Positions 1 through 58,222 of a stretch of 64,000 nt of DNA are shown piece after piece. A model generated the notes under the pieces. That model saw nothing but the letters and a program-made list of their open reading frames with translations. It ran no database searches and was not told where the DNA came from. This stretch comes from a virus. Taxonomy: Duplodnaviria > Heunggongvirae > Uroviricota > Caudoviricetes. Each line of letters opens with the position of its first letter. The stretch's first letter is position 1. The position numbers and the translations under genes were made by a program. The DNA lies in the IMG/VR virus record IMGVR_UViG_2617270980_000003. One strand, given 5' to 3'.

Positions 1-304
1 GCACGTTTTCGGTGAACGCACTCTGGCCACACTGGAGCGTCTTCTGAGCCTGCTGTCGGCCTTTGAGGTCGTGGTATGGATGACGGATGGCTGGCCGCTG
101 TATGAATCACGCCTGAAGGGAAAGCTGCACGTTATCAGCAAGCGTTACACTCAGCGCATTGAGCGACATAATCTGAATCTGAGACAACATCTGGCAAGGC
201 TGGGACGGAAGTCGCTGTCGTTCTCAAAATCGGTGGAGCTGCATGACAAGGTCATCGGGCATTATCTGAACATAAAACACTATCAGTAAGTTGGAGTCAC
301 TACC
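1..304 (+). mobile_element. IS1 insertion sequence, partial (right end only; rest lies left of the window)
   Basis: Frame from base 2 reads [95 protein letters not shown], which matches the InsB C-terminus as recalled; IS1-type terminus ...GTTGGAGTCACTACC ends at ~304. Confidence 0.9.
2..289 (+). CDS. insB: IS1 transposase InsB, C-terminal fragment (5' end outside window)
   Basis: Open frame from window edge to TAA at 287-289; sequence identity to InsB C-terminus as recalled. Confidence 0.9.
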
Positions 305-502
305 CAGTAACTCCGGGTATGAACTGCGCAATACACCAGTCCGGTTATATACAGCCCAGACAGTTCTTTTTATTCTGGCAGCAATATCCTTAACCGGGGT
401 GGATGAATAAAGCGCAATCAGCAGCGCATCTTCTTCAGGTGTCCACGGACGGACATGAGCGGGGGCGCGACCTTTTAGTCCCATGGGTTGTAATTTCATC
501 AT
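305..502 (-). pseudogene. Mu-like early gene (HTH-like protein) truncated at its 3' end by IS1
   Basis: ORF 224..502 begins MMKLQPMGLKGRAPAHVRPWTPEEDALLIALYSSTPVKDIAARIKRTVWAVYNRTGVLRSSYPELLG and then runs into reverse-complemented IS1 terminus; native C-terminus lost. Confidence 0.5.
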
Positions 503-505
503 GCA

Positions 506-1021
506 TCACCCCCTGACTCGCTTTTCAGCAGCATAAAACTCATCAGACAGTATTTCGGTCATTTTCTGTTTTGCGGGTTTTACGCCGCACTGAAGGTAAA
601 TCACATCGTCAACGCAGAACCACTTCACAGGGCCAAACAGGATTGCCGAGAAATCAATACCCAACCAGAACAACAGCGCATCGGTTCTGGCATACGTGAC
701 GGGCGAATATTCACGCCACAGACTGTTCAGTTCATCAGAGGCAACACGCAGGGTTTTAGGGATACGTGATGTGCGCGGTGTGCAGCTCCAGCCATTCGAC
801 GCAGTCGGTTTTCGCCATAAGTCGCGATGAAAAGGATATTTGTCCTCCGTAAAACGCAGTCCCTTAAAGTAAAATCCACTGATACCGGATACAAATACCG
901 ACCGGCACGCAACATTCAGCACGGCCTCAAGGCGTTTTGCCTCATCCTTAACTTTCTGGCAGTCCTGCTGGTATTTTTGCCACGCAGCCAGCGCGGAAGG
1001 GTTTGATGTTTTAAAGAACAT
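506..1021 (-). CDS. hypothetical protein, Mu-like early region
   Basis: 171-aa ORF abutting neighbouring ORFs on the same strand; no recognised motif. Confidence 0.45.
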   Translation of the reverse strand: MFFKTSNPSALAAWQKYQQDCQKVKDEAKRLEAVLNVACRSVFVSGISGFYFKGLRFTEDKYPFHRDLWRKPTASNGWSCTPRTSRIPKTLRVASDELNSLWREYSPVTYARTDALLFWLGIDFSAILFGPVKWFCVDDVIYLQCGVKPAKQKMTEILSDEFYAAEKRVRG

Positions 1022-1554
1022 TACGCCACCTCCGCAGATATCCCGGCAGGCGCTGCTGTCCGGTCAACAATCAGGTAGCGCAGAACATGTTCAGTGATAT
1101 TCCAGCCGCTTAAACCGCAGATAATGACGCCCAGGCGTATGTCGATATACGCCATCACAAACTGGGGCACGCCTTCTTTCATGGCCTGCTCATCAACTTC
1201 AGCCACCACATAAACGGTTTCACAGGTCAGAACGCCCTGAGCAAATTCCCACGCCATCGACGGAATATCATGCCCCTCAATCCATGGCAGGGATTTTCTG
1301 AAGCCGCACCACTGAACATCATCAGCCGCAGATTCCTGGCTGCATTTGCGACGAACCGGCTGCACCGGGCGGGGGCGCGGAATATCATAAAAACCGTTAC
1401 ATTCCGTCAGCACGCCTGCATCAACCGCATCACGCAGAAAATAAACCATGGAGGATGGCGGCATATTCATTTTTTCAGCCAGTACACCGCAGGTCAGGCG
1501 GCCATAAATACACAGCCAGTTTTTAACCCCTTCAAGCACTTTTGCATCAATCAT
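1021..1554 (-). CDS. hypothetical protein, Mu-like early region
   Basis: 177-aa ORF immediately downstream of gam, same strand; no recognised motif. Confidence 0.45.
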   Translation of the reverse strand: MIDAKVLEGVKNWLCIYGRLTCGVLAEKMNMPPSSMVYFLRDAVDAGVLTECNGFYDIPRPRPVQPVRRKCSQESAADDVQWCGFRKSLPWIEGHDIPSMAWEFAQGVLTCETVYVVAEVDEQAMKEGVPQFVMAYIDIRLGVIICGLSGWNITEHVLRYLIVDRTAAPAGISAEVA

Positions 1555-1699
1555 GATTTATTTCCCCACCACATTATTAATGACGATATAAACGTATTTC
1601 ATATTTCTTAACCCTTATTTTCTGTTTTCAGGCGCAAGCAGTCCCCTGACGCGAGCGCCATAATTAAAATGAAGTGATATTTAATTGATTAATGTGGTG

Positions 1700-2230
1700 T
1701 TATTTATTCAGTCCGGCGTCCTGTTCAAAAGGCTCGACATAAAAACTTTCAGCGCCTTTATTCACCTTGATACCGGCAATGCCTTTCACAGCATCCGGCT
1801 CCGCCAGGACGGCTTCCTTGTTCACTTCCTCTTTCGTGCGGATGAAACGCTCAAGCCCCATACGGCGCAGCATTTCAATCACACCTTCCACATCACGGCT
1901 GACGCTGCATGATGGCGTTCCCAGCCGCCATGACACCGTTCCGGTGGTCAGATTGGCTGTTTTGGTTTTGCCGCCGTTCGTCAGCTCATCACGGTTGGTT
2001 TTGCACCAGTCCTGAATCCCTTTAAAAAGCACTTTGATTTGCTTTTTAAGATTTTCAATCTGCGGCGTATAACGGGCGGTGATTTCTGCCACTTCGTCAT
2101 TCATCGCCGTTTCCAGGCGCAGCGCCTCTCGCTGAATATCTCCCAGGGTGCGGATATCACGGCTGACTTCTTCCCGGGTCTGCGGTGCCGCCTCGGCTGC
2201 GGCCTTTAATTTTGTAACGCGTTTAGCCAT
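1700..2230 (-). CDS. gam: Gam-like host-nuclease inhibitor (Mu Gam / Ku-like DNA-end binding protein)
   Basis: 176 aa; MAKRVTKLKAAAEAAPQTREEV...LRLETAMNDEVAEI...CKTNRDELTNGGKTKTANLTTGTVSWR...FIRTKEEVNKEA closely parallels Mu Gam as recalled; same length class. Confidence 0.85.
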   Translation of the reverse strand: MAKRVTKLKAAAEAAPQTREEVSRDIRTLGDIQREALRLETAMNDEVAEITARYTPQIENLKKQIKVLFKGIQDWCKTNRDELTNGGKTKTANLTTGTVSWRLGTPSCSVSRDVEGVIEMLRRMGLERFIRTKEEVNKEAVLAEPDAVKGIAGIKVNKGAESFYVEPFEQDAGLNK

Positions 2231-2241
2231 TTTGTTTTTCC

Positions 2242-2562
2242 TTATTGCAGTGTGCCTGATGCTTTATGCACGCGGTGGCGTTTAATGATGGCATCCGCTC
2301 CAAAAGACTGTGCAGATGCCTGAAATTCCGCTGAGAGAAACTGAATAATTGCAGGACTGTGATACTGGAGAATACTTGCATAAACGTCACAGAGTGACGT
2401 CGGCCTGTTATCCGTATCACGTTCTGTTTTCACATCCACTCCAATCTTTTCATGCACTTCAACACAGTCATTGCCTGCCAACTTTTCGTCATGCGAAACA
2501 TGATTAAATTCAAAAATAACGCGTACTTTGCTCATGGAATTACCCCTGTTGATTAAATTCAT
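2242..2562 (-). CDS. hypothetical small protein (paralogue of 2540..2812)
   Basis: Begins MSKVRVIFEF..., similar N-terminus to adjacent ORF MSKVVRIIFEY...; tandem pair in Mu-like semi-essential early region. Confidence 0.45.
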   Translation of the reverse strand: MNLINRGNSMSKVRVIFEFNHVSHDEKLAGNDCVEVHEKIGVDVKTERDTDNRPTSLCDVYASILQYHSPAIIQFLSAEFQASAQSFGADAIIKRHRVHKASGTLQ

Positions 2563-2812
2563 TACCGTTAATAACCCCGGAAGCCATGCCTCTGTCTTTC
2601 ATGAATGCACTGGCTTTCATTGCCACAAACTCTGCGAAGTTTCTGCTTTCTGCCAGCATAACCACCCCAAAAATCATGGCGGGTCCATTATCTTTCTTCT
2701 TTATTCCGGTTGAACGTATATCCAGACTTACCCCTCTGTGCGTGCTGCCATCAGAGTTTTTGCAGATAACATCTTCCTTGTATTCGAAAATAATGCGTAC
2801 GACTTTACTCAT
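2540..2812 (-). CDS. hypothetical small protein (paralogue of 2242..2562)
   Basis: 90-aa ORF, N-terminus MSKVVRIIFEYKEDV; position between B and gam. Confidence 0.45.
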   Translation of the reverse strand: MSKVVRIIFEYKEDVICKNSDGSTHRGVSLDIRSTGIKKKDNGPAMIFGVVMLAESRNFAEFVAMKASAFMKDRGMASGVINGNEFNQQG

Positions 2813-3090
2813 CCTCTGGTCCTCGTTCTGTTTGGATAACTGACCCGGCGTCTAACCTCACGGCAGAACCGAATCATGGCATTAAAGGCTTCTTCCTCCG
2901 TCACCGCTTCCGGTATCCCCGGAACCAGTAACTGCTCCTGTTCATCACGTCCATGACGCGCCATAACCTCAATCACATGCCGTACCGTGGCAGGCTTTCC
3001 GGCAACTATCGGCAATGCACCTTCCGGCAGGACGTAACCAAACTCAATAAGACCACTCGACCACGCCCATGCAATGAGATTTTTTTTCAC
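2809..3090 (-). CDS. hypothetical protein, Mu-like early region
   Basis: 93-aa ORF, stop/start overlap with neighbours. Confidence 0.4.
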   Translation of the reverse strand: MKKNLIAWAWSSGLIEFGYVLPEGALPIVAGKPATVRHVIEVMARHGRDEQEQLLVPGIPEAVTEEEAFNAMIRFCREVRRRVSYPNRTRTRG

Positions 3091-3091
3091 C

Positions 3092-3358
3092 TCACACCTC
3101 CCAGTAAACCGTGCAGCCGCTGATGCGGGTGGCCTTCACACGGCGGCGCAGGCCGTTGGTCTGTATGGTGATTTCAATTTCACCGGTTCCCTGCACGTTG
3201 CCTACCGGCGGCGTGGTTTTCAGTGCAAAACGTTGCGGATAGCGCTTACTGCGTTCCAGTACCGCACCGGCAAGTTCGGTCAGACGGCGCGCGCTGTTCA
3301 GGGAGTCGAATAAATTCATTTTGTTACCGCAGGATTGCATATTCATATAACACCTCAT
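3092..3358 (-). CDS. hypothetical protein, Mu-like early region
   Basis: 88-aa ORF in tight array downstream of B. Confidence 0.4.
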   Translation of the reverse strand: MRCYMNMQSCGNKMNLFDSLNSARRLTELAGAVLERSKRYPQRFALKTTPPVGNVQGTGEIEITIQTNGLRRRVKATRISGCTVYWEV

Positions 3359-3586
3359 TTAGCTGACTTGTTTCGCACCAACAGAACGGCATATTCCGCT
3401 GTAAACTTCTGTCGCACCTTCGCGATCAAGTCCGGCAGATATCACCATTCGTGTGCGGTCATTAAATTCAAAAAGTAAATCGCCACATTCTTTATTTTCG
3501 GCCAGTGAAATCACCTTCACGTTATCGAAATTAACCAGGTAAAAGCGTCCGTAAATATCAGGAATATTAAATACCGCCATAATCAC
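3359..3586 (-). CDS. hypothetical protein, Mu-like early region (kil position)
   Basis: 75-aa ORF overlapping the stop of B by 4 nt; position corresponds to kil in Mu, but no sequence evidence. Confidence 0.4.
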   Translation of the reverse strand: MIMAVFNIPDIYGRFYLVNFDNVKVISLAENKECGDLLFEFNDRTRMVISAGLDREGATEVYSGICRSVGAKQVS

Positions 3587-4524
3587 ACCTGTGAGAGTAA
3601 TTCAGGGTTGGTATAAACCTCTTTAAAGGCCGCATTAATATGTTTTTCTGTCAGCGCCGCGCCTTCACCGCTGGCGGTGAGCCACGCCTGGTTAAGCGTA
3701 TGTGTCAGAACGCGTAACGCTCCCGGCTTTTCAGCGATAGCCTGCATGACGGCCAGCTCGGCCTCACCACTGATCCCCCACGCCATGGCAATGGCCAGCA
3801 CATCCGCCTTTTTGGCCTTGCGAAGTTGTTTTGTACGGGCAAGACGGCTGAACAGGCGCGATAAATCACCAAAGGCGCGGCGTCCACCTTTAAACAATCC
3901 GCGCGGGTTACCAATAAGCACCATCCCGATCCCCGTGGCGTCCTGAATTGCCCGGAGTTGCTCCAGACCGTCAATACCAAGATGATCCGCCTCATCCACA
4001 ATCACCAGTCCACGCGTTCCCATCAGGCGACGGCGGATGGCGCGGGATAATGCCCCTTTGTTCGCGCGGGTGTAATCAATCCCCAGCGCATCGGCCAGCT
4101 CCAGCAGACACTCCGTGACGCTGGAGTGCGCGGGTGACAGGGTGATCATCCAGGTGTTTGGTTGCTCCTGGCAGTAATTACGGGCAGTGGCCGTTTTACC
4201 CACACCCGGTACGCCCACAATAACGTTAATACAGCCCATCAGGCGAACCGCCTGAAACAGTGCGCGCAGCTCCTGGACTGTCTGAGTTTCCACAAACTGC
4301 GGCGGTTCCGGCAGTGCGCTTTGTTTATTCCAGTTCTCATACCAGGAGCGCAGGGAAGCAGCCACAGCAGCGTTATCGCCTTTATATTTTCCCTTACGGA
4401 AAGCCGATAATGTGCCGTCGGAAATTCCCGCCTCTCTGGCGATGGCATACTGCGTCAGTACGCCGCCATCAATAAGTTCATCAATGGTCTTGATTACATC
4501 GTTAATATCGGTCATATTATTCAC
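3583..4524 (-). CDS. Mu B-like transposition target-DNA activator (AAA+ ATPase)
   Basis: 313 aa; Walker A GVPGVGKTATARNY, Walker B LVIVDEADHL; ...LPEPPQFVETQTV... and C-terminal ...KPGALRVLTHTL... parallel Mu B as recalled. Confidence 0.9.
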   Translation of the reverse strand: MNNMTDINDVIKTIDELIDGGVLTQYAIAREAGISDGTLSAFRKGKYKGDNAAVAASLRSWYENWNKQSALPEPPQFVETQTVQELRALFQAVRLMGCINVIVGVPGVGKTATARNYCQEQPNTWMITLSPAHSSVTECLLELADALGIDYTRANKGALSRAIRRRLMGTRGLVIVDEADHLGIDGLEQLRAIQDATGIGMVLIGNPRGLFKGGRRAFGDLSRLFSRLARTKQLRKAKKADVLAIAMAWGISGEAELAVMQAIAEKPGALRVLTHTLNQAWLTASGEGAALTEKHINAAFKEVYTNPELLSQV

Positions 4525-4597
4525 CTCGCTTGAGACAGCATTCTCCGAGACTGAAACCTCAAATAACCTGAGTCACCCCTCGGGTTATTTTTTTATT

Positions 4598-6685
4598 TCA
4601 GGCCAGCGGATCACTTTCTTTTAATTTCGCTTCGAGCAGTTGCAATCCCCGCTGGAAATTACGCTCGTATTCTTCATCAGGTTCATCGTCAGCGACCGGT
4701 TGCTGAACGGTCACCGTATTACCCACAGGGCGGTATATGTTTTCCAGCCAGGGCTCCTGCGGCTTGTGCTCCAGCACGTTGACAACCTCATCCTCGGCAT
4801 CACGGATTTTTTCCTCTGCGCGTTTACGCATGCCTTTAAGGCGCTGCTGCTGTTTGTAGTATTCCGCGCTGACAGGGAAGGCTTCGCGTTTATTGCCGTC
4901 CCATACCGCCTCGCAAATCACGCTGCCATCCGGGCGGCGCACGGTAATTCGTTCGGCATCATGAATGTCATAGCTGATAAGTACCTTACGGCCATGCTCG
5001 TCACGCAGCTCGGGCGCGTAGTAAATATTATTCAGCCAGCGTATTTCACAGCGTCTTACAGGGCGCTCCACCATCGGCCGGAACATATCCCGCAGTTCAA
5101 CATCGGACAGCCATTCAATTTCCGTGTCCTCTTCCGCCAGGCGTTTTTTTCTGAACTCCGCCGGGCTGTAATGTTTACCGTTCGGCTTCATGGGTAATTC
5201 ATCGTGCGGCCGGTTGTTGTACCACTCAACACCGTCACGAATGGCATCAATCAGTTCAGACCAGGACGGTAAATCACGCATCGCTGACTGCTGCCGGGCG
5301 TTCAGCCGTTTGCCCTGTTGCAGGGCACTGAATGCCGAGCGTAAATCGCGGTTGGTTTTACGTAACGTCTCGCGATCTGCTCCTTTCCCGAAATAGGTGC
5401 GGTATTTACGGGCTATGCGCATCGGTAATGTGCGGTTAAGCCGTTCGATAATGCCCCGTCCCTGCGGATTACCGGCAATCCCTGTCGGGTGATTAATCCC
5501 CAGTCGTGGCAGTATCCCCACAATCTCCTTATCCAGGACGTCGGCGGTTTCCCCGGAGCCATTATCCGAGTAATACAGAAACGGTTTGCCATGATGGCGA
5601 ATACCGTGCTGTATGGCACCGGCTACGGCGAAAACATTTTCAGCCAGGTCAAGGCTCCAGCCCACCACAAAGCGCGTGCCACCGTCGATAACAAAGGTCA
5701 CTTCCGGTGCGAATGGCCGCCCGTGAACCGGGTGCGCGCATTTCAGCTTCATGCCGTGACCGTCACCAATCCAGACATAATTCACCGGCATTTTTGACCA
5801 GTCGCGGCGCGTGAATCCCTCAAGCTGGCGGTATTCACTGCCGGTAACCCGTCCTTTTTGTTTCACCACTTCCGGCAGTTTCTTCATTGCGCGGCGAATG
5901 GTGTCATAAGACGGCATGATATCGAGCATATAAGGCTCATCAGCGTGCCGGTGCTGCCATTCGGCAACAAAATCCTCGTAAGCCTCGGTCATTGGTCGGC
6001 CGTTTGACTGGCGATACTGCGCCAGAAATTCGGGCAACCAGTTAATATCTTCGGCTTTTATTTCCTGGCGTTTACCTGGTGCCAGCAAAAGCAGGCGTTC
6101 AGCAGCGTTCTGTGCCTTATTAAAGGCCGCAATCCAGCGTTTCAGCGTGATTTCACTCAACACGCGACTGTTTCCCTTTCTGGCGTTCGCTATCTCAACC
6201 ATTGCCACAATGCGCTCATCCAGTTGCGAGTGTGACAGGCGGTCAACGATGAACCGGATAGCTTTAGCGCAGCTGAAACCGGGTTGTTGCGTGAATTTCA
6301 GCACCTCACTGACGATCGCAATGCGTGCGTCTGCCACCTGGCGCTGGTTTTCAGTCAGGGCATTGAGGCGTTCGACCATCAGTTGTGGTGATCCGCGATA
6401 TGCCTCCACCGCATCAACCACGGCAGACGAGCGTCTGGCCTTTGTCACCACCGGAGCCGGTGATTCATCGGCTTTTTGCGTCATCAGTTGCAGGGCATAA
6501 CGTTCGCGTAATGCCTGCTGTGTCACTTCAGGTAAACAGTCAATGCTGTATTCAAAACCTTTAGCGCCTTTCTTGCGGCGTCTGCTGGTTTCGCTGGTTG
6601 CATACTTCCTGATTGAATAGCGAACGCCTTGCTCCGTTCCCGGCATCCCCGGTAATCCAACCAGTTCTTTGACTGAAGCAAACAT
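4598..6685 (-). CDS. Mu A-like DDE transposase
   Basis: 695 aa; WIGDGH motif in DDE core, ...GSVICEAVWDG... region and acidic C-terminal tail resemble MuA architecture; sits between ner and B. Confidence 0.9.
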   Translation of the reverse strand: MFASVKELVGLPGMPGTEQGVRYSIRKYATSETSRRRKKGAKGFEYSIDCLPEVTQQALRERYALQLMTQKADESPAPVVTKARRSSAVVDAVEAYRGSPQLMVERLNALTENQRQVADARIAIVSEVLKFTQQPGFSCAKAIRFIVDRLSHSQLDERIVAMVEIANARKGNSRVLSEITLKRWIAAFNKAQNAAERLLLLAPGKRQEIKAEDINWLPEFLAQYRQSNGRPMTEAYEDFVAEWQHRHADEPYMLDIMPSYDTIRRAMKKLPEVVKQKGRVTGSEYRQLEGFTRRDWSKMPVNYVWIGDGHGMKLKCAHPVHGRPFAPEVTFVIDGGTRFVVGWSLDLAENVFAVAGAIQHGIRHHGKPFLYYSDNGSGETADVLDKEIVGILPRLGINHPTGIAGNPQGRGIIERLNRTLPMRIARKYRTYFGKGADRETLRKTNRDLRSAFSALQQGKRLNARQQSAMRDLPSWSELIDAIRDGVEWYNNRPHDELPMKPNGKHYSPAEFRKKRLAEEDTEIEWLSDVELRDMFRPMVERPVRRCEIRWLNNIYYAPELRDEHGRKVLISYDIHDAERITVRRPDGSVICEAVWDGNKREAFPVSAEYYKQQQRLKGMRKRAEEKIRDAEDEVVNVLEHKPQEPWLENIYRPVGNTVTVQQPVADDEPDEEYERNFQRGLQLLEAKLKESDPLA

Positions 6686-6687
6686 AA

Positions 6688-6918
6688 TTACGCGACCTTA
6701 CGAATGTAGCGGCTGGGCCAAATCTCCTCGGGCGGCACCCCCAGGCATTCCGCGATAATCCCCTCATACTTGGGAACATGGCGGTATACCGCGTTGTACA
6801 GATTGTTCTGACCCACGCCAGCTTTACGGGCCAGCGCCCTCATGCTTCCTTCTCTGGCTCTGACTTCCCCCAAAATTCTTTGAGGATGCCAATCAGGCTT
6901 AACTTCATTTCTCGCCAT
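6688..6918 (-). CDS. ner: Ner-like DNA-binding regulator (Ner/Nlp family)
   Basis: 76 aa; ...DWHPQRILGEVRAREGSMRALARKAGVGQNNLYNAV...EIWPSRY matches the Ner/Nlp signature as recalled; immediately upstream of transposase. Confidence 0.8.
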   Translation of the reverse strand: MARNEVKPDWHPQRILGEVRAREGSMRALARKAGVGQNNLYNAVYRHVPKYEGIIAECLGVPPEEIWPSRYIRKVA

Positions 6919-6946
6919 GATTCATCTATCCTAAAAAGTTACGAAA

Positions 6947-6972
6947 TTTGATAACTAAACTTAGTTATCAAG
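6947..6972. promoter_or_regulatory. Operator-like palindrome in the divergent c/ner control region
   Basis: TTTGATAACTAAAC/TTAGTTATCAAG inverted repeat (perfect core GATAACTAA-ac-TTAGTTATC) ~30 bp upstream of ner start. Confidence 0.5.
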
Positions 6973-7102
6973 TTTGATATAAGTATTGATCCACCTCTGC
7001 TTCATGTAAAGCAAAAAAACATCTTTCTTTTGTCTATTGTGGATCAATGGTTGCTGACAACACTAAAAGTTAATAATTTCAAATTGATAGGAAGAAAAGA
7101 AA

Positions 7103-7648
7103 ATGAACAAGCAAACAACAACATCTCTTTCTTTTCCTGGTGGTAGAAAAGAAAGCATTGCTGAGCGTCTGAAAAGGCTGATTGGCTCCCGCAGCGTCAG
7201 AGCTGCAGCAAGAGATTGGGGGCTTTCATTTTCAACACTAAACAATTATCTGTCTCGTGGCACTGAGCCATCCTTAAGTGTCGCCCTTCAGATTGCGTCT
7301 ATCGAAGGAGTAAGTGTTGAGTGGCTATGTGGATTCAGTGATGCATCACAAGTGAATCGGTGTGAGATCAAGGAAAATCAAGATGAAAGCAAGAAGATAA
7401 TTATGACGATTATCAGCGCACTTGATGAAAAAGACTTAGAGCAGCTATCGAAAAATTTGGTTCTGAATGGAGCCAAGTACTTAGCTCGGTTGTTAGAGCC
7501 TGAAAATCAAGATCTAATCCGCTTAGAAGGAAGGAAAAGAATAGCTGCATTACAGCTTGAAGGTATGTCTGACGAACGCGTCAGAGAGATTTTGGAAGAA
7601 ACTGAGAGAAGTCGCAAATCTAACGCGGTAGAACCAAAAGCGGGTTAA
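7103..7648 (+). CDS. Phage repressor, HTH XRE family (c-repressor position of Mu-like phage)
   Basis: 181 aa; N-terminal HTH ...SIAERLKRLIGSRSVRAAARDWGLSFSTLNNYLSRGTEPSLSVALQIASIEGVSVEWLCGF; divergent from ner-A-B. Confidence 0.7.
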   Translation: MNKQTTTSLSFPGGRKESIAERLKRLIGSRSVRAAARDWGLSFSTLNNYLSRGTEPSLSVALQIASIEGVSVEWLCGFSDASQVNRCEIKENQDESKKIIMTIISALDEKDLEQLSKNLVLNGAKYLARLLEPENQDLIRLEGRKRIAALQLEGMSDERVREILEETERSRKSNAVEPKAG

Positions 7649-7720
7649 TAGCATTAGCCCGCATTTTGCACTATATCGAGTATTTCGCATTGTTTGGAAC
7701 GCCTTAAAAGACTAAAACCA

Positions 7721-7884
7721 CAGTATCAAATGAGTTGCCGATTTTATAATAAATGACTAATTATTGCACAATCGGTATCAAATAGACCTTATCCGCACAT
7801 CTAGCCATCACCTGTTTTATTTCAGTATCTTACAGGTGATTTCACCTCCTTTCACTAAAACCCTTGTCGGTATCAAATGATTCA
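7721..7884 (-). repeat. Mu-like prophage left terminus with three repeated putative transposase-binding sites
   Basis: Plus-strand motifs CAGTATCAAATGAG (7721), CGGTATCAAATAG (7773), CGGTATCAAATGA (7868); palindrome GGTGAAATCACC at ~7835; minus strand reads ...TGAATCATTTGATACCG starting at 7884. Confidence 0.55.
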
Positions 7885-9621
7885 CCTGGTTATAATACTC
7901 ACGCAGCGGAACAGGCGCTGGCGCAGCGTCGGCAGCTTCAGCCCCCACACGCTGTATCCGGCAACGCCGTCAGGAACACGGCTAACTTTCACCTTCACGC
8001 CGTCGGTGACGGACTGAACCTCCACGCTGACCGGATTGCCACTTCCGTCAACCAGGCTTATCAGCCTGGTGCCGGAGGATGGCAGCGTGATTTCACGGTC
8101 GAGCGTCAGCGTCCGGGTCTGGCTGTTTACCGCCAGCACGCGCCCGCCGATGCTGATACCGGCATAGTCATCATCACAGATTTCAATGACATCACCCGGC
8201 ACATGGCGAAGCCCTTCTGCGCCCACGCTGAAGTCCACGGTCTGCGTTTCCAGCAGTTCTGTTTTAATCAGCCACAGCCCGGCGCGGTGTGCCTGCCCCC
8301 GGCTGGTACAGCCAAAAGCATCCATCTTCGTGACGTTACGACCGTAACGGGCAATGGCCTGCGTATCCTCCACAAGCTCTGTTGCCGTCTCCCAGCCGTT
8401 GTTCGGGTCAATCCAGTTCACCTCAACGGCATTATGGCGGTCTTTCAGGGCGCTAAAGCTGTAGCGGAACGGCGCGCCATCATCCGGCATCACCACATTA
8501 CTGCGGTTATAGGTCCACACCTTATCCGACGGTCGGTCCTGCACGAACGTCAGCGTCTGCCCGTTCCATACCGGCATACAGCGCATCGCCGAGCAGAAAT
8601 CACTGAGCACATCCCACGCCTTGCGCTGTGTGGTCAGGTACGCATTACAGGTGATGCGCGGCTCCGTACCGCCAAAACCGTCCGGCACTGACTGGTCGCA
8701 GTACTGGCCGATGACATACAGCGCCCATTTATCCACATCCGCCACACCAAGACGTTTCCCCATGCCGTAGCGTGGATGGGTCAGCATATCCCACAGACAC
8801 CAGGCCATGTTATTGCTGTATGCTGGCTTAAACGTTCCGTCCCAGATACCGCTGTATTGCCGCGTCTGCGGGTTATAGTTCGACGGCACCTGCAGAATAC
8901 GCCCGCGCAGATGATAATTACGGCTCACCTGCTGGCTGCCGAACTGCTCCGAATCCACCTGCACGCCGACCAGTGCCGTGTTCGGGTAGCACTGTTTCAC
9001 ATCGATGATTTCGGTGTATGACGACCAGAGCGTTTTGTTCTGCAGCTGGTCTGTGGTGCTGTCCGGTGTCATCCTGCGCATCCGGATATTGAACGGGCGC
9101 GGCGGCAGGTTATCCACCACCACCGAGGCCAGATACTGCGACGTGGTTTTGCCCTTAATGGTGATGTCTTTTTCTGTCACCCAGCCACCGTTACGTTGTA
9201 TCTGAACCAGCAGGCGGACTTCCGACGGATTCCGGTCACCCTTTGAGGTGGTTTCCACCAGTGCCTGCACACCGAAGGTAAAGCGCAGACGGTCGATGTT
9301 TGCAGACGTGATGGTCCGGGTGATCGGCGTGTCGTATTTCACTTCCGTACCCAGCACCGTCTCGGAACCGGAGGATTCAAATCCCTCCGGCGGTGTCTGC
9401 TCCTGCTCACCTGCCCGGAACACCACCGTGACACCGGAGATGTTGGTATTCCCCTCACTGTCCAGCACCGGTGTACTGTTCAGCAGCACGCTTTTTAATC
9501 CATCCACCGGACCTTCAACCGGCCCTTCGCTGATGGCATCGATCACACTCAGTAACTGCGTGGATTTCAGGTTATCCTTCGCTTCGCGCGGGGTATGCCC
9601 CTTACTGCTGCCTTTACCCAT
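7882..9621 (-). pseudogene. J: Lambda J-like central tail fibre / host-specificity gene, 3'-truncated by the Mu-like insertion
   Basis: 579-aa ORF starting MGKGSSKGHTPREAKDNLKSTQLLSVIDAISEGP..., near-identical to lambda J N-terminus as recalled (J ~1130 aa); frame ends ...LRQRLFRCVSIITR* at the junction. Confidence 0.85.
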
Positions 9622-18252: not shown

Positions 18253-20472
18253 TTACGCCGTACATTTAACCAGACCGCGGTGATCAACTGGCGCGACACC
18301 GGCGTCAATACGCACTTTCGTTGTCACGCCATCCACACTGAAGCCCTCCATCTGATCAATATATGGCGTATCCACACCGTTAAGATAAGCCACTTCAATC
18401 GTATCGGAGCCTTTTGACGCAGCCAGGTAGAAGGTGATCTGGCTGTTATCATCAAGACGAGGCTCTGCAATAACGGTCGCAAAATCTTTCACCGGGTTAA
18501 TAATACCGGCGTTAATGTCAGCCCCCTTGACACTTGAGGAGCGAATGACCTGGTTAGCAACAGACTCCATCGCCGTCGGTACCAGTACGAACGCAGGACG
18601 AATATTCAGATGACGCTCCCCCTCTTTCTGAACGCGCATCAACTGGCGGGCTTTATCCAGCGATGCCACGTCCATTGCAGCGCTCTCCAGTACGTTTGCA
18701 TGTTTCGCTTTATCGAACAGACTTACATTATCTGTGGAGATTTTCGGGTTAGACGTCAGAATGGCATAAACCAGATCGGCAATAGTGGATTTCGCCGCAC
18801 GGCCCAGTTTCATCGGGACATCGGTCAGCATATTCAGATCATCATTGATAATGGCCTGACGGGTGATACTGAACAGCTCGCCATAGGTCGCCAGTGCAAT
18901 AGTGGCCTGTTTATCTCCGGTGGTGACGTATTTATATTCCGCCCCTTCACGCACCTGACGCAGAGCACTGAAGCCCCCCATACCCACACGATGGGCAATT
19001 TTAAAATCAGACAACTGACCTTTCCGCGTCCACTGTTCATAGGTTTCAGGGGCATCTTCCCAGCCCTGCAGAATGGCTTTGTTCGCAACATCCAGCAGAA
19101 TATTACCGAAGTCAGACGTACTGTGTGTGAACGCCGCACCGACCATCTGCATCGGGTTATAACCGGAAACCCCAATACCCCGTTCAGTTAGTGACATACG
19201 GGCATATTCACGCAGGGTCATCCCGTTGTAGACATTATCACGTTCGGTTTTTTCAAATCCGGCACGCGCCATCAGCGCCTGGCGAATCCCGTCCCCCACA
19301 AAATTACCGTTACCGGCATAAATATGAGCCGGGGTATTTTTATTGGATGGCGTGGACTCGCGCCCCATCTCGTTCAACAGCTTTTCACGGGCCTGCTCCA
19401 GCGAACATTCAGGATCGGCAAGACACTGAGCCTGCAGCGTCTGATAACGCCCGCCAAACATGGCAAACAGATCACTAATACCGTTTACACGCGCTTTTTG
19501 CTCTGCCAGTACCTGCGCACGGATGCTGTTTTCATCCACCACGGGTGCTGCTGCCTGCACTGGCGTCCGGGAGGCTTCAGATTCATTATCCTGTACGCGT
19601 GGAGCACTGTTGCGTGGCGGAGTAATCATGTTTCGAATGGATTCCGGCATCTTTTTAAATTCCTCTGTACGTTTTGACTGAATACATGCCATTGCCTTAA
19701 CGGCTGGCGTTACCTGATCAGCAAATCCATGTGCCAGACATTCGGCACCGGACATCCAGGTCTCATCCGCCAGCATGGCAGCAATTTCATCGGTGGTTTT
19801 CCCGGTTTTCTGTGCATAAGCGGGTAACAGAACCGCCTCAACTTTATCGAGTAGGTCGGCATAGGTGCGCATGTCCTCCGCATCACCGCCCGTAAAGCCA
19901 AATGGTTTATGAATCATCATGAAGGTGTTTTCCGGCATAATGACCGGGTTTCCTACCATCGCAATGACCGACGCCATTGACGCCGCCACACCGTCGACAT
20001 AAACGGTAATGGACGCACCATGTGTTTTCAGCGCATTAAAAATGGCGATGCCTTCAAAGACATCGCCACCCGGTGAATTAATATGGAGATTAATGTGGGT
20101 GATATCGCCCAGTGCATTCAGATCACTGATAAACTGCTTCGCTGTAACACCCCAGAAACCAATCTCGTCATAAATATAAATATCCGCGTCACTCTGGTGA
20201 CCAGCCTGCATCCTGAACCAGGAATTATTCTTCGGGCTGGTCGTCGGTGTGCTGCGGCTCCTGTCGTTTCGTTGCGGCACTACTGCCTCCTTTATCACTG
20301 GCCGGATCGGTATCAAATACCAGATCCAGCTTGCGGTTTTCATCAATTTCGGCCTTGCGCCGACGTTTGACATCATCCGGATTACGACCACCAGCACGTA
20401 CCCAGTCTGATTCTGTCGCCGCTCCACCACGAATCTGGATTTTCCAGGCCTCAGCCTCCTTAACAGGGTCAA
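18253..20472 (-). CDS. Prohead protease (ClpP/S49-like) fused to major capsid protein; likely true start ATG 20211 (652 aa)
   Basis: N-terminal half has protease-like ...INSPGGDVFEGIAIFNALKTHGASITVYVDGVAASMASVI...; long C-terminal region in capsid position; the 20211 start overlaps portal stop by ~14 nt. Confidence 0.7.
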   Translation of the reverse strand: MTLLRRLRPGKSRFVVERRQNQTGYVLVVVIRMMSNVGARPKLMKTASWIWYLIPIRPVIKEAVVPQRNDRSRSTPTTSPKNNSWFRMQAGHQSDADIYIYDEIGFWGVTAKQFISDLNALGDITHINLHINSPGGDVFEGIAIFNALKTHGASITVYVDGVAASMASVIAMVGNPVIMPENTFMMIHKPFGFTGGDAEDMRTYADLLDKVEAVLLPAYAQKTGKTTDEIAAMLADETWMSGAECLAHGFADQVTPAVKAMACIQSKRTEEFKKMPESIRNMITPPRNSAPRVQDNESEASRTPVQAAAPVVDENSIRAQVLAEQKARVNGISDLFAMFGGRYQTLQAQCLADPECSLEQAREKLLNEMGRESTPSNKNTPAHIYAGNGNFVGDGIRQALMARAGFEKTERDNVYNGMTLREYARMSLTERGIGVSGYNPMQMVGAAFTHSTSDFGNILLDVANKAILQGWEDAPETYEQWTRKGQLSDFKIAHRVGMGGFSALRQVREGAEYKYVTTGDKQATIALATYGELFSITRQAIINDDLNMLTDVPMKLGRAAKSTIADLVYAILTSNPKISTDNVSLFDKAKHANVLESAAMDVASLDKARQLMRVQKEGERHLNIRPAFVLVPTAMESVANQVIRSSSVKGADINAGIINPVKDFATVIAEPRLDDNSQITFYLAASKGSDTIEVAYLNGVDTPYIDQMEGFSVDGVTTKVRIDAGVAPVDHRGLVKCTA

Positions 20473-33744: not shown

Positions 33745-34782
33745 ATGATTGTCCTTAGAATTTTTGTAAGTAAAATAACCACAATTTTTCCTAATTGCGC
33801 GACTAGACTCTATATGAAAAACCTTTCCTCAATTGATTACGCAAAACTTTTCTTTGCGTTTTGTATCATTTTTATACACACAGACATTTTAGGCGGCAAC
33901 AGTAATTATATAGGATATGTTACTTGCCAGGGACTGCTAAGGATTGCAGTGCCATTCTTTTTCATTACTAGTGGATATTTTTATTTTTCTGTAATGCAAA
34001 AAAATAAAATTAAAAAATGGTTTTCTCACAATATAAAAACCTATGCTCTATGGACGCTTCTTTACTTACCAATAATACTAGGATTAGTTGGTTTTATTAG
34101 GGCGGGTAAGCCTTTAGCGACAGACCTTACATATTTATCTCTAAATGCAGTATTTGGATTTTGGCACTTATGGTTTTTCCCTGCCCTGATAGTATCGGCA
34201 TTATTAACATTACTTTTAGCTAAGCTAAAAGATCGCACATTAATAATCATATGCTGCATACTTTATACGTGCGGCACGTTACTTCAATATCGCGCAAATT
34301 ATTCCATTGACATAAATCGTGACATATGGTCTCTCGCTACAGTTTTCTTTTCCAGAAACGGTCTTTTCATGGGTTTTCCATTGTTTATGCTTGGATACCT
34401 TATAAATAAAAATAACATAAGAAATAACAATACATATTTACTCATTGGTTCCATTATTTTGGTCATCATTGAGGCATCCGTAAATTATTCATATGGCACA
34501 TATACCTTTGATATGCTTTTTTCACTTCCATTCGCTGGTGTTTTTGTTTTTTTAAAAGTTCTAGATATCACCCTGAAAACAAAAAACACCTTCACAATTC
34601 GCGAGCACTCAAAAAACATATATCTTATACAAATCTATGCCATTCAGTTTGCAAAACAATTTGCATCTGATTGGTTAGTCATAACAACAATCGCATGCAC
34701 TATTTGCATTAGCTATTCAATAGCTAATATCATTAAAGATAATTTAATTGCAAACTTTAGACTAAAAAGCCTATCAAATTAA
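33745..34782 (+). CDS. Acyltransferase family 3 (OafA/Oac-like) integral membrane protein; probable start ATG 33814
   Basis: Strongly hydrophobic multi-span protein; ...IDYAKLFFAFCIIFIHTD... N-terminal signature; region looks AT-rich by eye; sits between U and G. Confidence 0.7.
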   Translation: MIVLRIFVSKITTIFPNCATRLYMKNLSSIDYAKLFFAFCIIFIHTDILGGNSNYIGYVTCQGLLRIAVPFFFITSGYFYFSVMQKNKIKKWFSHNIKTYALWTLLYLPIILGLVGFIRAGKPLATDLTYLSLNAVFGFWHLWFFPALIVSALLTLLLAKLKDRTLIIICCILYTCGTLLQYRANYSIDINRDIWSLATVFFSRNGLFMGFPLFMLGYLINKNNIRNNNTYLLIGSIILVIIEASVNYSYGTYTFDMLFSLPFAGVFVFLKVLDITLKTKNTFTIREHSKNIYLIQIYAIQFAKQFASDWLVITTIACTICISYSIANIIKDNLIANFRLKSLSN

Positions 34783-48307: not shown

Positions 48308-49657
48308 ATGCGATTGACCGCTCCTGTTAAAGCGTTCTCAGATGGTTTTAGTACAGCAGATGACATATTTGGACGTAAAAAACTTCATGACATCATCATG
48401 CGGGTAGCAACAAATGCCCCAGATAAAAGTCTTGTACTTGCGCTCAATGATGAATGGGGTAACGGAAAAACCTCATTTGTAAAAATGATGTCATCAGAAA
48501 TAAATAAAAACCATGCTGACAACTTTGACGTTATTTACTTTGACGCTTTTGAAAATGACTATCAATCAGACCCATTTGTAGCCTTAACATCAAAAATTTA
48601 TTCACTCATAAAAAAAGAAGATGGAAAGCTTAAAAACCTCGGGAAAGAGTTATTATCCATTGGTAAAAAACTAGGCGCGTCATTCGCACTTAATGGTGCA
48701 AAATTTGCCGTAAGCACTTTCACAAGTGGATTAGTCTCAGGTAACGCACTGGAGAAAGCAAGTGATGCCATCAGTGACTCTCTCACATCACCTATTGAAG
48801 AGTACATTGAAGAAAAAATAAAAACGAGCGAGAGTGAGTTAGCAACAATTGAGCAATTTAGAGCATTGCTGACCAAGATTCACACTGAGTGTGGGAAAAA
48901 AATAATATTTATAATTGATGAGCTAGACAGGTCGCGACCTGATTTTTCCCTTGACTTGCTAGAGAAAATAAAACATATATTTTCAGTGGAAGGTTTTGTT
49001 TTCTTACTAGTAGTTAACCGTGAGCAGTTTGAAAAAAGTATAGAGTGTAGATATGGGAGCATAAATACAAGATTATATTTAAATAAATTTATTCATTATT
49101 GGTTTACTCTTCCTAAAAAAAGTATGCTCTCAGTAGGCTGCCGAGCAGGCTATGAACGTTCAACGTTAACACAATATCTCCTGTCGTTAGATCAAGGGAA
49201 TGACATACTGATTCGGAATGGTTCTCTCGTAAAAACCCTCGCGTATCTTCTAGAAATGAATAACTGTTCACTGCGAGAGGCTGAGCGTTGCTATTCAACA
49301 TTCGCAATAATGAACGACCCCAGCGAAGTAAATTCCTACCGACATGAAATATTTCATGTTGCCATCGCACTAGTTGCTTTCTTGAAAATATTCAACCAAT
49401 CCTTACTCATGGAAATATTAAACAAAAAACTGACAGAAGATGAGATATTTAAACGATTATCAATTCCTGTAAACCTTGTCGATGTTTCTGAGATTTATTA
49501 TATTGCAATATTGTTAAAATACCACTTAGCCACCGATGAAGAACTACGTTCCTCTGATATGCTCACTGAGTACGCATTCATGGCTGTAATACCTGGACAA
49601 CGAGTCAAATGGTTTGAAATGATGTATGAGAAGATCGAAGGCTTTGATATTAACTGA
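48308..49657 (+). CDS. KAP-family P-loop NTPase (cargo gene in P2 old/tin hotspot)
   Basis: 449 aa; Walker A NDEWGNGKTSF, Walker B IIFIIDELDRSRPD, hydrophobic stretch between them; AT-rich by eye. Confidence 0.75.
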   Translation: MRLTAPVKAFSDGFSTADDIFGRKKLHDIIMRVATNAPDKSLVLALNDEWGNGKTSFVKMMSSEINKNHADNFDVIYFDAFENDYQSDPFVALTSKIYSLIKKEDGKLKNLGKELLSIGKKLGASFALNGAKFAVSTFTSGLVSGNALEKASDAISDSLTSPIEEYIEEKIKTSESELATIEQFRALLTKIHTECGKKIIFIIDELDRSRPDFSLDLLEKIKHIFSVEGFVFLLVVNREQFEKSIECRYGSINTRLYLNKFIHYWFTLPKKSMLSVGCRAGYERSTLTQYLLSLDQGNDILIRNGSLVKTLAYLLEMNNCSLREAERCYSTFAIMNDPSEVNSYRHEIFHVAIALVAFLKIFNQSLLMEILNKKLTEDEIFKRLSIPVNLVDVSEIYYIAILLKYHLATDEELRSSDMLTEYAFMAVIPGQRVKWFEMMYEKIEGFDIN

Positions 49658-49718
49658 TAAGCCATATTATCTTTTATCTCTATTTTGAAGCAATAAAACT
49701 AGAAGTAAACTCTAAAAA

Positions 49719-49740
49719 GCCGCCAATCCCGGCGGTCTTT
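49719..49740 (+). terminator. Rho-independent terminator after the KAP NTPase gene
   Basis: CCGCC-aatccc-GGCGG hairpin followed by TCTTT. Confidence 0.45.
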
Positions 49741-49936
49741 GAAGGGCATTACAATTTCGTGGCGCTCAGTTATACATGGATTCTTAGCAAGGACCAAGCC
49801 GCGACACACTACATTGTAGCTCCCCGCTATGTGATTTGAAGTTGCTGGCAATCAAAAAATGCTCCCTTTAGTACCACTAATTTTGTAGAGTATGGTTAAC
49901 TTTGAAAAGTTGTAATACGTCAACTAAGGAACAGCG

Positions 49937-51088
49937 ATGTCATCAGAAAAAACAATAGAACGTTTCGTTGCAGCAGATGTTAGCGGTGCAATCTGGTTAC
50001 GATTAAAACGATTAATGAGTGCGCAGCTCTGTAAGAAAATAATAGAAAATAATCATCCGTCATTGCAAGAGGATGTATTGATTAAAAAATCCATTGGAAT
50101 GTCCTCCGCAATACGAAGTGCAATCGGATATTGGGAGACTGAAAATGGCGGACTCAATTCAAAAATTTTATCCAGATATTATGCATTATTACAGATAAGC
50201 TTAGCTGAACAAATATCATCAGGGGATCCTAACGACGATTTAAAAAATGTTCAAAAGCATACGGTTTCAGGTCATGGGCTATTCACACAATCTGTTGAAA
50301 ATGAAACATTCCCAGACAATATAAAAATAGGCTGTCTTAAAAGTGGACATTTTTATTCATATGCAAAGCATATAGGAATTGATATCAAACAGTATGCAAC
50401 AGAAAGACGTCCAAAAAAAGATGAAGATTTAGACCCATCACGCACCTATTCTTTAACTGATTTATTAAAACGAATTCCAGAATTAAGACCGCTTTTACAA
50501 GAAACTTTCGGTGAAGATCCACTTTCATTCCAAATTGGACAAGCAAGTAGAAACATGCTCTTAAGATCAAGGAATCAGTCACTCGGTGGCCTATCGCGTC
50601 CTAAACCAGAGTTCTCAGGTTTTACATATGCCGCAATTTATCCCAAAGGTAGCGATGTAACAGCAGAAGAGCTTAATTCTTACAACATTGGAATAAAAAA
50701 CATTGAAATTGAGTCAGAAGAAAACCTCACAAAATATGACCAACCATATTTTGTAGGAGAAGTCCATCACCCTGAAGATGAGCTATGGTGGGATTATGTC
50801 ACGACACACAAATCTGGTTATTGTGGAACGAGTGTAATTGTCCCATTTTGGGGAACTCAAGATCCCTTTGTATTACACTTAGTCGTATTATATACATTAA
50901 GCATTATAGTCAGGTATCTCCCTGACACTTGGTATGAGATTGAGCATGGCAAACTTGATTATATTAATTCCCTTTTGGAAAATTATTTAGCTATTTTTGA
51001 TAGTGTACTGCCTAAACTTGCGGTTGAAAGATTAACGAAAGTTCATTTGGTAGTAACAGCACCCGATAGCATGAATTCCCCTATCTAA
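49937..51088 (+). CDS. Hypothetical protein (second cargo gene in hotspot), no recognisable domain
   Basis: 383-aa ORF, AT-rich, own upstream region; C-terminal hydrophobic segment PFVLHLVVLYTLSIIVRYL. Confidence 0.6.
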   Translation: MSSEKTIERFVAADVSGAIWLRLKRLMSAQLCKKIIENNHPSLQEDVLIKKSIGMSSAIRSAIGYWETENGGLNSKILSRYYALLQISLAEQISSGDPNDDLKNVQKHTVSGHGLFTQSVENETFPDNIKIGCLKSGHFYSYAKHIGIDIKQYATERRPKKDEDLDPSRTYSLTDLLKRIPELRPLLQETFGEDPLSFQIGQASRNMLLRSRNQSLGGLSRPKPEFSGFTYAAIYPKGSDVTAEELNSYNIGIKNIEIESEENLTKYDQPYFVGEVHHPEDELWWDYVTTHKSGYCGTSVIVPFWGTQDPFVLHLVVLYTLSIIVRYLPDTWYEIEHGKLDYINSLLENYLAIFDSVLPKLAVERLTKVHLVVTAPDSMNSPI

Positions 51089-57208: not shown

Positions 57209-58222
57209 ATGACAATTAAGAAACTCGATGATGGTCGTTATGAAGTGGACATTAGACCTAGCGGACGCAACGGAAAACGCATCCGCAGGAAGTTTGACAA
57301 GAAAAGTGAGGCAGTGGCCTTTGAGAAGCACACGCAATACAACCACCACAACAAGGATTGGTTAGCGAAGCCGACCGATAAAAGGCAACTTTCCGAATTG
57401 ATTCAAATCTGGTGGGAACTCAAGGCAAAGCACGAGGAATGGGGAAAGTACAATCGGGGAAAGGTCGAGAAATTCGCGGCGATAACCGGTGATCCGTGCG
57501 CGTTTCAGATTACAAAGACGGTAATTAGCCAGTATGTTGCAGCTCGGCGAGGTGAAGGCGTTAAGCCATCTACCATCAATCGGGATCTGACATGCATCAG
57601 CGGAATGTTTACCGCTCTGATTGAGGCCGAGCTATACCATGGCGAACACCCGATAAGAGGACGTAAACGACTCAAAGAGGAGAAGCCCGAAACGGGCTAT
57701 TTAACCAACGAGGAAATTACCGCCCTTTTCTCGCGGCTCGATGGTGACAATAAAAAAATAGCGGTTCTTTGCCTAAGCACGGGCGCTAGGTGGGGTGAAG
57801 CGGCAAAACTGAAAGCCGAGCACATCATCCATAATCGGGTGACGTTTGTTAAAACCAAAACGAACAAACCCCGAACGGTGCCAGTATCGGCAGAAGTATG
57901 TGAAATACTCACCAGCGTGAAGCGCGGCTTCCTGTTCCCGAATGCCGATTACACGTTGTTCCGGCAGGTACTGAAAGAGGTAAAGCCCGACCTGCCAGCA
58001 GGACAGGCAACCCATGCTCTACGGCACAGTTTTGCTACGCATTTCATGATTAACGGAGGAAGCATTATCACGCTACAAAGGATACTCGGTCACGCGCGCA
58101 TAGAGCAGACAATGGTCTACGCGCACTTCGCGCCAGAGTATTTACAAGATGCCGTAACACTCAATCCGTTAAAGGGCGGCATTGAACCCGAAAACGTCCA
58201 CACAGTGTCCACACTCGGGTGA
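57209..58222 (+). CDS. int: Tyrosine integrase (P2 Int-like)
   Basis: 337 aa; C-terminal catalytic region ...HALRHSFATHFMINGGSIITLQRILGHARIEQTMVYAHF... Confidence 0.9.
   Translation: MTIKKLDDGRYEVDIRPSGRNGKRIRRKFDKKSEAVAFEKHTQYNHHNKDWLAKPTDKRQLSELIQIWWELKAKHEEWGKYNRGKVEKFAAITGDPCAFQITKTVISQYVAARRGEGVKPSTINRDLTCISGMFTALIEAELYHGEHPIRGRKRLKEEKPETGYLTNEEITALFSRLDGDNKKIAVLCLSTGARWGEAAKLKAEHIIHNRVTFVKTKTNKPRTVPVSAEVCEILTSVKRGFLFPNADYTLFRQVLKEVKPDLPAGQATHALRHSFATHFMINGGSIITLQRILGHARIEQTMVYAHFAPEYLQDAVTLNPLKGGIEPENVHTVSTLG

Follow-up and report, generated by a model that had tools for sequence, protein, structure and literature searches.

The DNA from position 305 to 7894 of the window, by which we mean the whole stretch of 64,000 nucleotides that was analysed, can with high confidence be assigned to a transposable Mu-like prophage of the E. 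coli Sp18 family, of which it forms the left 7.6 kb and which entered codon 576 of J in a resident lambda-like prophage through DDE transposition. As a result J is truncated to 576 + 3 residues and has lost its C-terminal half. Three repeats at the end of the element, termed L1 to L3, are most likely the sites of its transposase. The initial annotation had postulated a Mu-type left end within a lambdoid J gene, and this interpretation is borne out by three lines of evidence. The junction coincides with a terminus shared by many insertions of the element, related prophages carry inverted copies of the repeats at their right ends, and genes for a repressor, Ner, a transposase and a MuB protein adjoin the end. 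The features of the region are compiled in Table 1.

Table 1. Features of the Mu-like left end, the interrupted J gene and adjoining DNA in window coordinates.
Feature	Position	Strand	Basis
IS1 fragment; interrupts or truncates the Mu-like prophage; end of the source contig	1..305	.	Sequence matches
Early region of the Mu-like prophage (kil 3092-3358, gam 1700-2230, others), broken off at IS1	305..3586	-	Collinearity, 98.6%
MuB-type AAA+ target activator	3583..4524	-	48% identical to MuB; Pfam Phage-MuB_C
Mu-type DDE transposase, 695 aa	4598..6685	-	Pfam HTH_Tnp_Mu_1 and Mu-transpos_C; PHROG 310, E 4e-211; 23% identical to MuA, E 2e-14
ner homologue	6688..6918	-	45% identical to Mu Ner; Pfam HTH_35, E 1e-21
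Repressor-ner intergenic region (presumed operators, early promoter, enhancer; role inferred from Mu)	6919..7102	.	Promoter-like site 7010..6982 (-); repeats
Repressor-like gene, position and orientation of Mu c but XRE/HTH_3 type	7103..7648	+	PHROG 3037 'transcriptional repressor', E 4.5e-60; weak HTH_3 match
Hairpin and U-run (AUUUUGC) 3' of the repressor gene	7640..7668	+	10-bp stem, -14.4 kcal/mol, z -3.3
attL of the Mu-like prophage, terminal nucleotide 7894, reads 5'-TATAACCAGGTGAATCATTTGATACC	7711..7894	-	Terminus in independent insertions; 89% identical to the other immunity type
Site L3, core 165-172 nt from the terminus	7721..7731	-	Repeat search
Site L2, core 113-120 nt from the terminus	7773..7783	-	Repeat search
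Conserved inverted repeats in the L1-L2 spacer; perfect 9-bp arms 7807-7815 / 7832-7840, imperfect palindrome 7834-7845	7807..7846	.	Repeat search
Site L1, core TTTGATAC at 7877..7870, 18-25 nt from the terminus	7868..7878	-	Repeat search; R1 counterpart inverted, 18 nt from the right terminus in relatives
TGA stop of the truncated J ORF, inserted-element positions 11-13	7882..7884	-	Sequence read and ORF list
5' half of the lambdoid tail-tip gene J (codons 1-575 and 2 nt of 576)	7895..9621	-	Lambda J identity; intact gpJ DNA identity; Pfam FNIII-A_GpJ, Phage-tail_3
Predicted 4-bp target ATAC, expected to be duplicated at the right junction	7895..7898	.	Inferred from seven relatives and two empty-site rebuilds
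Right end of the Mu-like element in window orientation, TATAGCGCGGCGATTTTTTTGATACC			From relatives

The list of open reading frames gives a product of 579 aa for the frame 7882..9621 on the minus strand. Its residues 1-576 align without a single gap to residues 1-576 of lambda J, with 566 of 576 positions (98%) identical. Hence, collinear similarity extends from the first residue of the lambda protein to residue 576 of 1132 and is lost thereafter, just as the initial annotation had described. The DNA of the truncated gene is 100% identical across 1006 bp to the gene of an intact 1165-aa gpJ from E. coli 600029. Alignment with this gene shows that J homology starts exactly at 7895, which sets the break between 7894 and 7895. 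With the break marked by a slash, the intact gene reads ...CTCACGG/ATACTCACGC and the window reads ...GGTTATA/ATACTCACGC. Codon 576 spans the junction and is ATT in the window and ATC in the intact gene, both encoding isoleucine. Read directly, the sequence past this codon is ATA-ACC-AGG-TGA (I-T-R-stop), all of it foreign DNA. Since the TGA lies inside the foreign DNA, the stop codon of the J frame was indeed supplied by the insertion. An in-frame continuation of J was sought in the 64-kb window, but the 3' half of the gene is absent from it. An identical junction between J and Mu-like DNA occurred in none of the 5,426 complete E. coli genomes searched.

The C-terminal half of lambda J contains the receptor-binding region of the protein. 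With this part missing, the lambdoid prophage cannot produce infectious tails unaided. In E. coli O157, other lambdoid prophages are known to provide complementation (PMC2669165). For annotation purposes, J should be regarded as a pseudogene made by a transposable phage, the lambdoid prophage should be scored as tail-defective and the interval 7711-7894 should be labelled as a Mu-like attL rather than as regulatory DNA of J.

The foreign DNA is 98.6% identical to and collinear with the left 7.59 kb (positions 969-8558 of L011) of a 38-kb prophage in E. coli S1-CAM-01-A. The genes of this prophage follow the complete order of Mu, with repressor, ner, A, B, kil, gam and mor, then lysis, head, contractile tail and tail fibre genes, and finally com and mom. 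The closest relatives, with identities of 98.6-99.9%, are prophages in a dozen complete E. coli genomes. More distant are Sp18 of E. coli O157:H7 Sakai and the Sp18-like phages residing in Stx and other prophages, which share 93-94% nucleotide identity over about 80% of window positions 1-7900. Two Stx phages contain regions designated by their depositors as 'inserted Bacteriophage Mu-like phage', and these are 93-94% identical to the foreign DNA. The annotated Mu-like region of LC727881 matches 83% of window positions 1-7900 at 93.6% identity, which places the element, including its end, among the Sp18-like phages. The Sp18 type has the same three sites in its terminal block and shares the right end ...CGCTATA as well as 4-bp duplications. 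It differs in the immunity region, where positions from about 6554 to 7524 are non-homologous, and in the left terminus, which is 5'-TG instead of 5'-TA. Sp18-type Mu-like phages are transposable and occupy strain-specific sites (PMC7430833). They are often found inside other prophages including Stx phages, and six of ten copies were located in mobile elements (PMC10132054). Insertion of such a phage into another prophage is thus already documented, and the present finding, real but ordinary, adds one more case.

The position of the element terminus does not depend on the J gene. The terminus at 7894 is common to at least nine independent insertions, of this or a related element, in unrelated E. 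coli genes. In other genomes, this end abuts bcsA, citD, a P2 capsid gene, an sgrR-family gene, xdhA, paaA, dcuC, dgcE, elyC and an Stx phage. The shared end always stops at ...CACCTGGTTA(T/C)A, i.e. ...GGTTA(T/C)A, and is followed by a variable base, so that window position 7894 is the last shared base of the element. A junction between J and Mu-like DNA might also be an assembly chimera or the scar of a deletion or recombination event rather than a transposition joint, considering that the assembly is a draft and that IS1, Mu-like, lambdoid and P2-like DNA are joined together in the window. However, the break lies on precisely the last element base as set by the independent insertions, the join contains no shared repeat able to mislead an assembler, and the same contig was reported in three samples. 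As J homology breaks off exactly, to the nucleotide, where the element ends, an origin of this kind is practically ruled out, leaving transposition into J as the explanation of the junction.

At its other side, the element borders on IS1. An IS1-mediated deletion might have left a dead 7.6-kb remnant, in which case the rest of the prophage, possibly along with the 3' half of J, is gone and a right end no longer exists. This would describe the present state of the element and not its origin. Consistent with a deletion, Mu-like homology ends at 305 where IS1 starts, within a gene that is intact in the relatives, and the 64-kb window contains no other Mu-like sequence and no 3' sequence of J. On the other hand, the source contig JNMX01000022.1 (GCA_000700685.1), whose coordinates are those of the window, itself begins inside IS1, and short-read assemblies stop in this way at any IS copy. 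A complete prophage with a plain IS1 insertion would give the same picture, and the right junction of that prophage would read ...CACGGATAC/TATAGCGCGGCG. We therefore regard the deletion as possible but rather doubtful.

Three repeats at a spacing of roughly 50-95 bp had been noticed next to the junction in the initial annotation. They conform to CRGTATCAAAT, i.e. C(G/A)GTATCAAAT, and are found at 7721, 7773 and 7868, all on the plus strand and 52 and 95 nt apart. None of them is derived from J. Shuffled 64-kb windows contained on average 0.05 matches to C(G/A)GTATCAAAT, and none of 100 shuffles reached the observed number of four. The fourth exact copy, CGGTATCAAAT at 20308-20318, resides in the coding sequence of a lambdoid head gene with no Mu-like homology nearby and is probably a chance occurrence. 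Measured inward from the left terminus, the core TTTGATAC starts at 18, 113 and 165 nt. The window holds only the left end; in full-length relatives, the right end carries three inverted copies at 18, 40 and 75 nt from the terminus. Repeated sites on the left thus have inverted counterparts on the right, and both sets are unequally spaced. When Mu was analysed likewise with its own core, the distances were 20/125/165 on the left and 20/42/57 (inverted) on the right.

In Mu, the A protein has three sites per end at non-equivalent spacing (PMC3145075, PMC3562280). Position, symmetry and analogy with this arrangement suggest that L1, L2 and L3 are most likely bound by the element's own 695-aa transposase. 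The report on phage KS10 already lists Sp18 among the prophages with six putative transposase-binding sites (PMC2628397). During integration, the transposase would bring the left end together with a right end bearing the three inverted copies, introduce nicks at the terminal TA-3' and attach the ends to phosphates of the target that are 4 bp apart. The J frame ends at the in-frame TGA located 11 nt inside the element.

It is conceivable that the repeats serve as operators or other regulatory sites for the repressor or Ner, or as host-factor sites, and not as transposase end sites. The related heptamer TTTGATA recurs in the repressor-ner region at 6937-6979, and L1 looks loosely IHF-like by eye. 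Yet, the same core is located 18 nt from both termini in inverted orientation, combined with a Mu-like distance of 22 bp between R1 and R2. Moreover, the repeats are situated downstream of the repressor's terminator and not at a promoter. They are also retained in the two immunity types despite their diverged repressor regions. Identity between these types is 53% at 7649-7710, just inside L3, and rises to 89% at 7711-7894. A regulatory function in place of an end function is thus very improbable, and we favour the assignment of L1 to L3 as transposase sites.

The end resembles Mu attL in its geometry. There are three sites per end, those on the left at 18/113/165 compared with 20/125/165 in Mu, the distance between R1 and R2 is 22 bp in both, and L1 stands alone as in Mu with L2 and L3 close together. 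Further likenesses to Mu are a repressor gene that reads toward the end, a divergent ner-A-B operon with MuB and Ner homologues of 48% and 45% identity, and random insertion with a short target duplication. In contrast, inspection revealed no evident similarity to Mu in the ends or in the site consensus (core TTTGATAC versus YRCGAAA), in agreement with the earlier remark that the sequence differs from Mu attL. Furthermore, R3 is direct here and inverted in Mu, the transposases are only 23% identical, the repressors are unrelated, and the element has TA termini and a 4-bp duplication where Mu has CA termini and a duplication of 5 bp. Judged by similarity to attL and to the 22-bp A-site consensus, the element is not a member of the Mu/D108 sequence family. 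The dissimilar attL, the low identity to MuA, an integrase-like transposase core and the TA termini might all be held against the Mu-type interpretation of the element.

Core and layout of the sites recur in a known Mu-like phage. The Yersinia phage vB_YpM_5 (MT374853), which is classified as a Muvirus, has a transposase gene with 81% DNA identity over 1.46 kb and six sites with the core ATTTGATAC. Its left sites are found at 18/122/164, with the termini placed by register with the E. coli element and not independently. The right sites have the same 22- and 35-nt spacings and come to 18/40/75 if the assumed right terminus shifts by one base. All twelve sites of the element and the Yersinia phage share ATTTGATAC, whereas the spacers differ. 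By eye rather than by alignment, the L1-L2 spacer of vB_YpM_5 is Mu-like and unlike that of the E. coli element. The vB_YpM_5 record is circular, and its right and left ends seem to be joined via about 78 bp (positions 1655-1733 of L027) that resemble packaged host DNA, not phage.

Directly inside the left end, the genes for the repressor, Ner, the DDE transposase A and the AAA+ protein B follow one another. Sequence comparison revealed no similarity of the repressor to Mu c. The description of the repressor gene as divergent is correct with respect to ner-A-B but not with respect to J, on which the gene converges. In the intergenic region, positions 6937-6979 contain direct and inverted repeats (AGTTAYSAARTTTGATA twice and a 15-nt inverted repeat) and the heptamer TTTGATA common to the end sites. 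These repeats could be operators or enhancer elements. The hairpin following the repressor gene is likely its intrinsic terminator. In the transposase, the N-terminal 60 residues alone match the MuA structure 1tns, whereas a phmmer search matched residues 362-424 to retroviral (RSV/ASV) integrase cores and not to the MuA catalytic core. From inspection of the BLAST alignment, D308, D373 and E414 are plausible DDE residues.

Comparison with an Sp18-type relative delimits the immunity module. Homology is gone between about 6554 and 7524. This segment takes in ner and the intergenic region and, on either side of them, the initial ~130 nt of the transposase gene and the greater part of the repressor gene. 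It returns at 7524, and the stretch 7524-7892, containing the 3' end of the repressor gene and the attachment site, is 80% identical. As the loss of homology reaches into the start of the transposase gene, the module includes the N-terminus of the transposase. The same holds true for Mu compared with D108.

The spacer between L1 and L2 contains the conserved inverted repeats. The palindrome mentioned in the initial annotation is present but imperfect (GGTGA-TT-TCACC), and it overlaps the perfect 9-bp inverted repeat. Folding of this repeat gives a z-score of -4.1, and the entire spacer including the inverted repeats is invariant in four of four aligned relatives. Inspection by eye of the spacer for an IHF-type consensus gave no convincing site. 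In Mu, the packaging signal and the HU-induced bend are both located in the L1-L2 spacer. By analogy, a role of positions 7800-7850 in packaging or bending is a reasonable guess.

A correction is needed for the target duplication, which had been expected to be 5 bp long. All seven full-length relatives are flanked by direct repeats of 4 bp (tgtg, gtga, atta, tacg, taga, gacg and catc), and the fifth base is mismatched in six of the seven. For LC727881, which lies in a repetitive target, a shifted 5-bp repeat was ruled out by comparison of the seven right ends; a 4-bp duplication is likewise recorded in the annotation by its depositors. For both dgcE and elyC, which are uninterrupted in thousands of genomes, reconstruction of the empty site with one 4-bp copy gave a match at 276 of 276 bases. 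We also considered that the terminal T/A belongs to the target and thereby yields a duplication of 5 bp. This was dismissed as intact J has G and not A before ATACT and as the empty sites of dgcE and elyC fit solely a 4-bp duplication. If 4 bp were duplicated at J, the right junction would read ...GTTCTCACGGATAC/TATAGCGCGGCG, whereas a 5-bp duplication would instead give ...CACGGATACT/TATAGCG.

The terminal bases are unusual as well. The right end is ...CGCTATA-3', with a terminal TA-3', in seven of seven relatives. In the window and six close relatives the left end reads 5'-TATAACC (5'-TA), and 5'-TGTAACC (5'-TG) occurs in the Sp18 type only, so that the element does not have the terminal dinucleotides 5'-TG...CA-3'. 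To our knowledge, CA-3' is near-universal as the cleaved terminus. Mu itself has CA termini and a stagger of 5 bp (PMC3562280). Our literature search for 4-bp duplications in Mu-like coliphages yielded a GenBank feature note but no paper, and target duplications are not discussed in the saltovirus and SfMu papers. These findings raise the question of whether the Sp18 family, in E. coli and Yersinia alike, has a transpososome geometry unlike that of Mu, with a 4-bp stagger, cleavage at TA-3' and a transposase core closer to retroviral integrases. We put this forward tentatively, as a proposal whose prospects are almost evenly balanced. If true, the family would offer a natural variant with which to examine what determines the stagger and the choice of terminal base in DDE enzymes. 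The 4-bp duplications and the TA termini are the sole points that go beyond routine annotation.

The insertion in J is part of a larger assembly of mobile elements. In the window, IS1 (1-305) and the left 7.6 kb of the Mu-like prophage (305-7894) are followed by the lambdoid late region from truncated J to terminase (7895-~24600), a P2-like prophage of about 32 kb (~26.3-58.3 kb; ogr to integrase at 57209-58222) and lambdoid lysis genes (~59.1-61.2 kb). As the P2-like prophage lies between lambdoid blocks, it appears to be integrated in the same lambdoid prophage. A search for a direct-repeat att core around it returned only a 13-mer. According to Pfam labels only, the apparent cargo of the P2-like prophage (48308-51088 and 33745-34782) comprises a KAP-family NTPase with a YaaC-like protein as its neighbour and, adjacent to the tail genes, an Acyl_transf_3 acyltransferase.
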